Of a DNA stretch of 37,294 nt, positions 27,088-29,050 are shown piece by piece. This DNA comes from Dokdonella sp. (GTDB lineage Bacteria; Pseudomonadota; Gammaproteobacteria; Xanthomonadales; Rhodanobacteraceae). The stretch spans positions 1 through 37,294 of the forward strand of contig DASWPR010000507.1 in the NCBI GenBank assembly GCA_036398455.1, in the 5' to 3' direction. The notes below the pieces were generated by a model. The model was not told the DNA's origin. It saw only the letters and a program-made list of their open reading frames with translations, and ran no database searches. Position 1 is the stretch's first letter; the number at the start of each line of letters is the position of its first letter. Made by a program: the position numbers and the translations under genes.

Positions 27088-27642
27088 ATGCATAGTGAAG
27101 GTGATAGTTCCGGCAGTTCGTTCGACCATTTGAAAGAAGGCGCTTCGCAGATCGGCGGTGCCGTCGCCGACATGGCTGGCGCCGTTGCGACCTCGGTCAG
27201 CAATGCCGCTTCCGATGCCAAGGCAGCCGTCGAAAGCACCGCGAAGAAGGTCGCCAAGACCGCTGTGAAGGCGCGCAAGCAGGCGGCCCGCAAGGTGCAG
27301 GCGGTCGTCGCCAAGGCCAAGCAGGTCGTTTCCAAGAAGCCGGCGGCTGCCAAGAAGGCAGCGGCGAAGAAGGCCGCACCGTTGAAGAAGGCGGCGGCGA
27401 AGGTGGCGAAGAAAGTTGCCAAGAAAGTCGCCAAGAAGGCCGCACCGGTGAAGAAAGCAGCCAAGAAGGCCATCAAGAAAGTCGCGGCGAAGAAGGCGGT
27501 GAAGAAGGTCGCCAAGAAGGTCGCCGCGAAGAAGGTGGCGGTCAAGAAGGCAGTCAAGAAAGTCGCCAAGAAAGTTGCGAAGAAGCCCGCCGCCAAGAAG
27601 GTGGTGAAGAAGGCCGTGAAGAAGGCCGGCAAGCGCAAGTAA
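27088..27642 (+). CDS. Histone H1-like Lys/Ala-rich protein 1
   Basis: RBS GGAGAGGGG; about 50-aa helical N-terminus, then repeated AKKV/AKKA/VKKA units; strong AAG codon bias. Confidence 0.88.
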   Translation: MHSEGDSSGSSFDHLKEGASQIGGAVADMAGAVATSVSNAASDAKAAVESTAKKVAKTAVKARKQAARKVQAVVAKAKQVVSKKPAAAKKAAAKKAAPLKKAAAKVAKKVAKKVAKKAAPVKKAAKKAIKKVAAKKAVKKVAKKVAAKKVAVKKAVKKVAKKVAKKPAAKKVVKKAVKKAGKRK

Positions 27643-27660
27643 GCCGAACGCCTGTTGCGT

Positions 27661-27690
27661 CACCGGTCGATCCGCGGCGGTCGACCGGTG
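27661..27690. other. Perfect 10-bp GC hairpin after histone-like gene 1
   Basis: CACCGGTCGA...TCGACCGGTG; no U-tract. Confidence 0.55.
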
Positions 27691-27723
27691 GCGAGGTCGT
27701 CCAGAGCCGCAATGGAGAAGCGC

Positions 27724-28077
27724 ATGGCAACCCGCAGACGCACCACGATGTACAGCAGTGCCGGCAAGAAGCTCTACGCCGTCCGCAACGCCGACGGCTC
27801 GTTCAAGGACATCCAGACCTACGAACGCGCGCACCGTGCCGACATGGCGCACAAGAGCGCTGCGGAGAAGGCTGTCGCCGCGAAGAAGGCCGCCAAAAAA
27901 CCGGCAGCCAAGAAAGTTGCGAAGAAAGTTGCGAAGAAAGCCGCTGCCAAGAAGGCCGCGGTGAAGAAGTCGCCGGCAAAGAAGGCCGCCAAGAAGGCCG
28001 CCAAGAAGGTGGTCAAGAAGGTGGCCAGGAAAGCCGTCAGGAAAGCACCCGCGAAGAAGGCCGCGAAGAAGAAATAA
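27724..28077 (+). CDS. Histone H1-like Lys/Ala-rich protein 2
   Basis: RBS GGAGAAG before ATG 27724; non-repetitive N-terminus (KKLYAVRNADGSFKDIQTYERAH), then AKK repeats. Confidence 0.85.
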   Translation: MATRRRTTMYSSAGKKLYAVRNADGSFKDIQTYERAHRADMAHKSAAEKAVAAKKAAKKPAAKKVAKKVAKKAAAKKAAVKKSPAKKAAKKAAKKVVKKVARKAVRKAPAKKAAKKK

Positions 28078-28180: not shown

Positions 28181-28987
28181 ATGAAGATCAGCAAGAAGAT
28201 CAAGGGCTACAGCGTCGTCAAACCCGAAGAGACCGTGAAGGTCGTGCCGCCCGAGGACGCGCCCAGCAGCGCGCCGGCGGTTTCGATCGCCGAAATCATC
28301 CAGATGCACGAGAAGGTGGAGCGCCCGGAGACGCTGATCGGCGCCACCTACAAGATCAAGTCGCCCCTGTTCGAGCACGCGCTGTACGTCACGATCAACG
28401 ACATCGTGCTGAACGCCGGCACGGTGCATGAGCTGCGCCGCCCGTTCGAGATCTTCATCAACTCGAAGAACATGGACCACTTCCAGTGGATCGTCGCGCT
28501 GACCCGCATCATGAGCGCGGTGTTCCGCAAGGGCGGCGACGTCACGTTCCTGGTGGAGGAACTGAAAGCCGTATTCGACCCGCGCGGCGGCTACTTCAAG
28601 GCCGGCGGCGTCTACATGCCGAGCATCGTCGCCGAACTCGGCAGCGTGATCGAACAGCACCTGAAGATGATCGGCCTGCTGCACGACCCGGACATGTCCA
28701 ACGAGCAGCGCGCCCTGATCGCCGAGAAGCGCGCGATCTACGATTCGCGCCTAAAAAAAAATAGCGGAGTAAGCGAGTCCCCCGAAGATTCGTCATCCTC
28801 GCGAAAGCGGGGATCCATCGCCGCCGACCTGGCCGGCGCCGGCGCCGAAACCGCCGCGATCGAACCGGCTGCCTCTGCCGCGTTCCCGCCTGGCGCGGCC
28901 ATGTGCGCCAAGTGCAATACCAACGCCGTCATCCTGATGGATGGGTGTGCGACGTGTTTGAATTGTGGATATTCGAAGTGCGGGTAG
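28181..28987 (+). CDS. nrdJb: Class II ribonucleotide reductase small subunit NrdJb
   Basis: MHEKVERPETLIGATYKIKSP, LYVTIND, RPFEIFINSK, ALTRIMSAVFRKGG; C-terminal CAKC...DGCATCLNCGYSKCG. Confidence 0.93.
   Translation: MKISKKIKGYSVVKPEETVKVVPPEDAPSSAPAVSIAEIIQMHEKVERPETLIGATYKIKSPLFEHALYVTINDIVLNAGTVHELRRPFEIFINSKNMDHFQWIVALTRIMSAVFRKGGDVTFLVEELKAVFDPRGGYFKAGGVYMPSIVAELGSVIEQHLKMIGLLHDPDMSNEQRALIAEKRAIYDSRLKKNSGVSESPEDSSSSRKRGSIAADLAGAGAETAAIEPAASAAFPPGAAMCAKCNTNAVILMDGCATCLNCGYSKCG
28753..28771 (+). other. A9 slippery run in nrdJb with near-immediate stops in both shifted frames
   Basis: CTA AAA AAA AAT AGC GGA GTA A: one extra A (or -1 shift) gives TAG at 28762-28764; one fewer A gives ATA GCG GAG TAA. 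Confidence 0.65.
28791..28818 (+). repeat. Single REP-like palindrome inserted in frame in the nrdJb linker
   Basis: CGTCATCCTCGCGAAAGCGGGGATCCAT, similar to the 308-385 element; translated as SSSRKRGSI. Confidence 0.75.
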
Positions 28988-29050
28988 TTTGGCTACTTGA
29001 CTGTTGATCAAGGAGCATTGGTTCGAGTCCAACTTAGGGCGCCGATCACA

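Follow-up and report, generated by a model that had tools for sequence, protein, structure and literature searches.

The 37,294-nt stretch of Dokdonella sp. DNA analyzed here, hereafter the window, carries a split class II RNR locus (Table 1). NrdJa scored 581.6 bits against TIGR02504 (cut-off 399.95), and a domain search returned PF02867 and PF00317 only, with no ATP-cone match and no Cys tail; a tail-less NrdJa partner encoded near nrdJb is what identifies a split class II enzyme. NrdJb combines the TSCPD/IscU-like domain with the six-Cys tail by which NrdJb proteins are recognized, and NrdJb is also the name given by NCBI to close relatives of the window protein. The nrdJa-nrdJb gap holds two histone H1-like Lys/Ala-rich ORFs (window positions 27088-28077) and measures 0.3-1.35 kb in most close relatives and <250 bp in most other Gammaproteobacteria. 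Directly behind nrdJb, positions 29018-29043 form a tRNA-like 3′ fragment with 25/26 identity to G000:C569:4011-4036, possibly an old integration scar; no whole tRNA gene or Rfam match was called near nrdJb. In the relative G705, 1.25 kb lying 3′ of nrdJb (L265:8345-9592) is absent from the strain of the RNA runs described below and represents a variable insertion site.

Table 1 Features of the split class II RNR locus in the window
Feature	Position	Strand	Basis
nrdJa, catalytic subunit of split class II (B12) RNR, 715 aa	24810..26957	+	TIGR02504
nrdJb, 268 aa, 28.9 kDa: TSCPD core, helix, linker, 6-Cys tail	28181..28987	+	PF12637
TSCPD domain (aa 63-161), SufE/IscU-like fold; present in the long form and the predicted short form	28367..28663	+	Pfam
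Putative A9 slip site, where the final helix of the folded region ends	28753..28761	+	
TAG, −1 frame stop, met after one extra A (194 aa, 21.8 kDa)	28762..28764	+	
TAA, +1 frame stop, met after one A lost or two gained (196 aa, 22.0 kDa)	28770..28772	+	
Variable disordered linker (aa 202-232)	28784..28876	+	pLDDT <50
Cys-rich zinc-finger/redox tail (C242, C245, C256, C259, C262, C267), full-length form only	28904..28984	+	

The predicted structure of NrdJb consists of a SufE/IscU-like core (residues ~46-168), a helix that ends at the A9 run, the disordered linker and a confident zinc ribbon past residue 240, a layout that agrees with the one described in PMC9669993. Fold matches of the predicted structure were weak (Z 5-5.8, among them IscU at Z 5.2), and a sequence search for a solved-structure relative returned none. 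The six tail cysteines are invariant among 68 aligned proteins, and the tail is modeled with pLDDT >90. Within the linker, a REP-like palindrome (~28790-28818) forms an in-frame insertion with 18 further matches in the genome, and the linkers of orthologous nrdJb genes contain other REP-like motifs; many orthologues also show lower GC3 in their final codons.

An earlier note, made from the sequence of the window, had singled out codons 191-194 of nrdJb (CTA AAA AAA AAT) as a candidate site of programmed slippage, and its reading of the letters is borne out. The A9 run is the longest of all A/T runs in the window, followed by four A6 runs, and lies in a gene that encodes Lys by 16 AAG and 4 AAA codons (two of these AAA within the run) and Leu by CTG at 14 of 17 positions. 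Adding one A, or shifting by −1, leads through K to TAG, while the loss of one A leads through I-A-E to TAA, as does the gain of two. The note had placed the run at the end of the conserved domain, which holds insofar as the run lies near the end of the folded part; more precisely, it is found ~30 residues past the Pfam TSCPD match (63-161), at the close of the final helix in the model (174-197, moderate pLDDT). Among the 28 A/T runs of at least 8 in the 4.04-Mb assembly (81% complete), the nrdJb A9 alone lies within a long high-GC3 ORF, and the one other ORF-flagged run of that length sits on a terminator-like hairpin. The GC3 at the A9 site is 0.4 and the codons there are rare for these genes; synonymous recoding of the window peptide yielded the run together with both stops at P = 0.00015-0.0017. 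The A9 site in nrdJb is not a product of chance.

Orthologues were collected as 239 loci, giving 231 distinct nrdJb genes: 80 best matches among species genomes, 30 from a class-wide sample, and 29 best plus 100 picked among 150 listed matches from an order-wide sample, the picks taking in listed lower-scoring two-piece matches of close families. The set is skewed toward close relatives, with 204 genes (including that of the window) grouped as Xanthomonadales-like, 121 by family code and 83 because they are kin or similar (the titles of some MAGs name other taxa), and 27 of the 231 from other Gammaproteobacteria. A run of at least 8 A's occupies the boundary in 151 of the 204 Xanthomonadales-like orthologues, and the distribution of lengths is sharp and bimodal (9 in 139, 8 in 6, 10 in 6, 6-7 in 6 and ≤5 in 47), so that 139 of the 151 share with the window the coding run of about nine A/T typical of dnaX-type slippage sites. 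By family code, such runs were found in 18/38, 24/33, 14/19, 8/13, 6/9, 6/6, 1/2 and 1/1 genes. Later sampling of the family with 1/1, a deeper one, gave A9 in 9 of 30 genes (21 had no run), in the second codon phase and with a −1 stop in 9/9 and a +1 stop in 6/9, and another deeper family had the run in 0/11; exactly nine A's were present in 25/25 genomes of the genus to which a named Lysobacter belongs. None of the 27 other Gammaproteobacteria first checked had a run of 7 or more (longest, 6), and when 301 class genomes were searched by pattern, two from outside the order turned up with A9 followed 1-2 codons later by a −1 TGA, a count that is a lower bound because the pattern fails to catch the window's own site.

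The A9 genes place the run in three different codon phases (125, 11 and 3 genes), indicating that the run itself is kept rather than the peptide. Run-bearing genes differ down to 72% core identity and encode Lys in their cores by 157 AAA and 1196 AAG codons, and the linker behind the A9 site is highly variable among orthologues. The absence of the run from 47/204, 21/30 and 11/11 genes indicates that it is dispensable, and on a FastTree phylogeny built from alignments free of the linker (six loci with 6-7 A's and the outsiders left out) its state changed 25 times.

Near stops in both non-zero frames, another property of dnaX-type sites, accompany the run. Within six codons of it, the 151 run-bearing genes carry a −1 stop in 149 cases, a +1 stop in 134 and both in 132, compared with 12, 3 and 1 at the matching place in the 47 run-less orthologues. 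The run and both stops are thus conserved, and lost, together, whereas the earlier note had named orthologues with AAG AAG or lacking near stops as the outcome that would speak against its claim. When the peptides were recoded with core or linker codon usage, 2.3-9.7 runs were expected among 150 genes (G538 excluded from the 151), and only 0.02-0.27 genes with the run and both stops, as against 132 observed, which together with the three phases places conservation beyond what the peptide needs. Across 11 independent pairs with good support, the −1 stop tracked the run at 7.8 vs 0.1 (median p 0.008) and the +1 stop at 9.7 vs 0.0 (median p 0.002). At the fixed +1 position (n = 125), the triplet is TAA in 39 genes, TGA in 30 and TAG in 22, and never TGG, while elsewhere in the linker TGG is commoner than stops (47 vs 37); the 30 TGA stops arise where the codon before ends in TG. 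The −1 stop, which in orthologues is mostly TGA one codon later than the TAG of the window, is the stricter of the two. This swapping of stop types that avoids TGG, and the co-variation of run and stops, point to selection for termination rather than for rare codons or a promoter. At the level of DNA comparison, these counts demonstrate nucleotide-level selection on the nrdJb signal, and A9 with its off-frame stops is, on this comparative evidence, a real and conserved recoding signal.

Seven RNA-seq assemblies were compared at contig level at the locus L257/L265 of G705. Nine A's were present in X1, X2, X3, X7 and X8, and X5 had no indel there among the rows listed, while the X4 consensus contig (depth 305) had ten and no further indel in the gene; the 16 substitutions of X4 are also those of X1-X3. 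Mixed run length in RNA was thus seen as A10 in one of the seven assemblies, a comparison of contigs alone in which X4 has no same-sample DNA beside it. Over 20 kb, no other listed indel differed where two RNA runs overlapped, and this stretch contains no second A/T run >6 to act as a homopolymer control. The small-share runs X13 and X14 were left out, and X16 (run kind unspecified), a different strain by its substitutions and hence not a matched control, has nine A's. Assembly retains a path only where coverage is close to equal. Logan contigs are the best guess of the major allele (10.1101/2024.07.30.605881), and the ten A's were therefore probably near parity in X4. This is no more than suggestive of RNA slippage, as the contig could hold a DNA variant of its sample; the ten A's and the stricter −1 stop fit a heavy one-A insertion. 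Counting against the polymerase, the E. coli enzyme is less prone to slippage on runs of A than on runs of T (PMC6260861).

The short products would contain none of the six cysteines, and a tail-less NrdJb could not re-reduce the active site. The earlier note had proposed a short form that binds NrdJa and cannot pass electrons; the latter holds in that residues 1-196 are free of cysteine, while docking of tail-less NrdJb on NrdJa is something we infer. In P. aeruginosa, NrdJb performs thiol-disulfide exchange within (NrdJa-NrdJb)2 and is essential in vivo, and the consulted passages of its description (PMC4520616) do not map which part of NrdJb contacts NrdJa. A complex prediction of NrdJa with NrdJb 34-193 scored 0.00, which has no bearing either way. 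Class I RNR does not track the run, being present in 24 of 41 run-bearing genomes (41 of 78 were taken for this check) and 29 of 39 run-less ones; a search for its beta subunit came up empty in 17 of the 41.

Naturally tail-less NrdJb-like genes of 141-181 aa were present in 6 of 57 viral loci (L425, L429, L430, L431, L435 and L437), and two more look broken. Their products stop around residue 165-185, short of where the predicted slip product ends, and none of the 57 viral relatives has a run >6. Of these loci, 41 have no nrdJa within 3 kb, and an RNR barrel was found in 0 of 5 viral records tested, two of which are complete phage genomes (G728 and G729) that each encode a tail-less protein. 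These homologues lend indirect support, from sequence, to a NrdJb core that can work alone, and the stand-alone phage proteins are possible modulators of host RNR.

Taking these observations together, a programmed frame change of some kind that yields a short nrdJb product is very likely, and RNA polymerase slippage is probably its main route. Transcripts would carry nine A's, ten as the main variant, or some other number, at which X4 weakly hints, and, as follows from the sequence, any change in A count that is not a multiple of three would meet a stop only a few codons on, with the folded core and the last helix intact and no cysteine in the product. By analogy with gamma in the clamp loader, short NrdJb may then enter the (NrdJa-NrdJb)2 holoenzyme, and such mixed holoenzymes would have fewer electron-shuttle tails. 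We therefore favor, with fair confidence, a model in which the A9 site produces by polymerase slippage both the 268-aa NrdJb and a Cys-free form of ~195 aa, the latter likely docking on NrdJa as a competing subunit and lowering the share of active sites that are re-reduced; an action of short NrdJb on NrdJa, taken by itself, stands about evenly balanced.

Of the two routes offered by the earlier note, transcriptional slippage is thus preferred over a −1 ribosomal shift. The ribosome could make both products from a uniform mRNA, by −1 frameshifting on A_AAA_AAA/G or by sliding along the A run as far as out-of-frame stops, which ribosomes do in E. coli extracts (PMC4363877). Every A9 contains an in-frame A_AAA_AAA heptamer, of the X_XXY_YYZ type that a −1 frameshift site combines with a −1 stop, that stop is present in 149 of the 151 genes and is the stricter (149 vs 134 of 151; 9 vs 6 of 9), and 45 of the 151 have A_AAA_AAG in frame; the related loci L023 and L025 have A_AAA_AAG only, with the −1 TGA retained and a 5-bp GC hairpin ~6 nt downstream, and may have switched to a ribosomal cassette for the same predicted short product. 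The upstream Shine-Dalgarno sequence and 3′ stem-loop that would complete such a site are lacking, however, with no Shine-Dalgarno excess upstream of the run (46/151 vs 44% in controls) and no conserved downstream hairpin (median folding z −0.55, 26/151 below −2, a hairpin in a minority). The exact length of nine in three phases, the A10 contig of X4 and a +1 stop kept equally with A_AAA_AAG (40/45) and without it (94/106) also argue for the polymerase, and we regard a purely ribosomal origin as improbable. Least probable of all is the absence of any recoding, with the site acting as a rare-codon pause, internal promoter or antisense terminator: the site codons are rare (GC3 0.4) and a weak −35-like hexamer follows the A-tract, but no −10 is present (at best ≤3 of 6 in 124/125), a perfect stem of at least 6 lies beside the run in just 11/150, and neither the +1 TGA built in 30/125 from a codon ending in TG nor the missing TGG is accounted for. 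Promoter, terminator, Shine-Dalgarno and hairpin readings of the site were rejected on the −10, stem, Shine-Dalgarno and folding counts.

Replication might instead mutate the run in the DNA and so turn off the tail in a fraction of the cells, a phase variation that would suit G538, in which A9 (L266:3796-3804) leaves an intact Cys tail in the −1 frame, the 3 frame-broken genes among 119 metagenome matches, a 199-aa database entry equal to the +1 product, and X4, which could be such a variant. Phase-variable tracts differ among genomes in length and frame, yet this run is in frame in 150/151 run-bearing genomes, 25/25 of one genus and 116/119 metagenome matches, two A8 contigs have other indels nearby, and loss of NrdJb would likely be costly in the 17 of 41 genomes in which no class I beta subunit was detected, so that this account appears highly unlikely. 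G538, whose nrdJa is unbroken, has either an allele that makes full-length NrdJb only by slippage or a misassembly. The 199-aa entry, from a strain with a second, full-length record, is probably an assembly error; such an error fits both, and neither was counted as support. The main rival of the competing-subunit reading, simple dosage control, shares its mechanism and differs in the role alone: selected slippage would only lower full-length NrdJb, the short piece being waste and the stops serving to avoid junk tails. The near stops fit both readings, and the distance of 0.3-1.35 kb between nrdJb and nrdJa in most genomes may call for a dosage correction. Against this, the cut in the structural model falls exactly after the last helix and leaves a whole domain, L076 has the run though nrdJa adjoins, and tail-less homologues occur naturally in phages; we consider dosage control alone unlikely, if the most serious of the alternatives.

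Polymerase slippage as favored here has a close precedent in dnaX of T. thermophilus, where extra-A transcripts give gamma and tau at about 1:1 (PMC5009743, PMC1088944). As described there, dnaX resembles nrdJb in being an in-frame gene with nine A's and close stops in both other frames, and in a short product that lacks a C-terminal functional domain. The nrdJb case differs in that it concerns an RNR subunit, the part lost is a redox zinc finger, the run has been repeatedly lost in relatives, and the mRNA mixture and the two proteins are predictions. Ribosomal frameshifting in E. coli dnaX and copA uses Shine-Dalgarno and stem-loop stimulators. These genes likewise obtain a short and a long product from one ORF, and the A_AAA_AAG motif is shared by 45 of the 151 nrdJb genes (the sole one in L023/L025), but nrdJb has no conserved Shine-Dalgarno or stem-loop and conserves a second off-frame stop. 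The P. aeruginosa NrdJa/NrdJb enzyme is a split class II RNR as well, and the main text of its description mentions no slippage, frameshift or truncation (PMC4520616). The S. nassauensis NrdJd has a comparable six-cysteine zinc finger that shuttles electrons within a domain that drives oligomers; it differs in being a fused enzyme, and its engineered truncation takes the whole domain rather than the tail alone (PMC5704485). We found no report of nrdJb slippage or of an RNR subunit recoded into two lengths (subscription papers, GeneTack/Recode and bioRxiv supplements lay outside the scope of the search), and the nrdJb case did not appear in the accessible portions of PMC5009743, PMC3711429 and PMC1088944 or the supplements of the latter two. 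The mechanism is thus already known, and its use in an RNR subunit is apparently new.

Control of RNR is known at the levels of transcription, allostery and oligomerization. The case bears on how class II enzymes lacking an ATP cone limit their activity: in a scheme we hold to be speculative and rather doubtful, A9 slippage would set the ratio of NrdJb to a cysteine-free decoy on NrdJa, the rate could follow the balance of ATP to the next nucleotide, and some phages would have captured a tail-less module for the same action on the host enzyme. It also bears on the role of the unexplained IscU-like NrdJb domain in the absence of the tail. The signal spans eight families of an order with culturable Lysobacter and Rhodanobacter, and, if true, would be a rare case of in-frame recoding in a core housekeeping enzyme, of a kind that escapes screens for broken ORFs.
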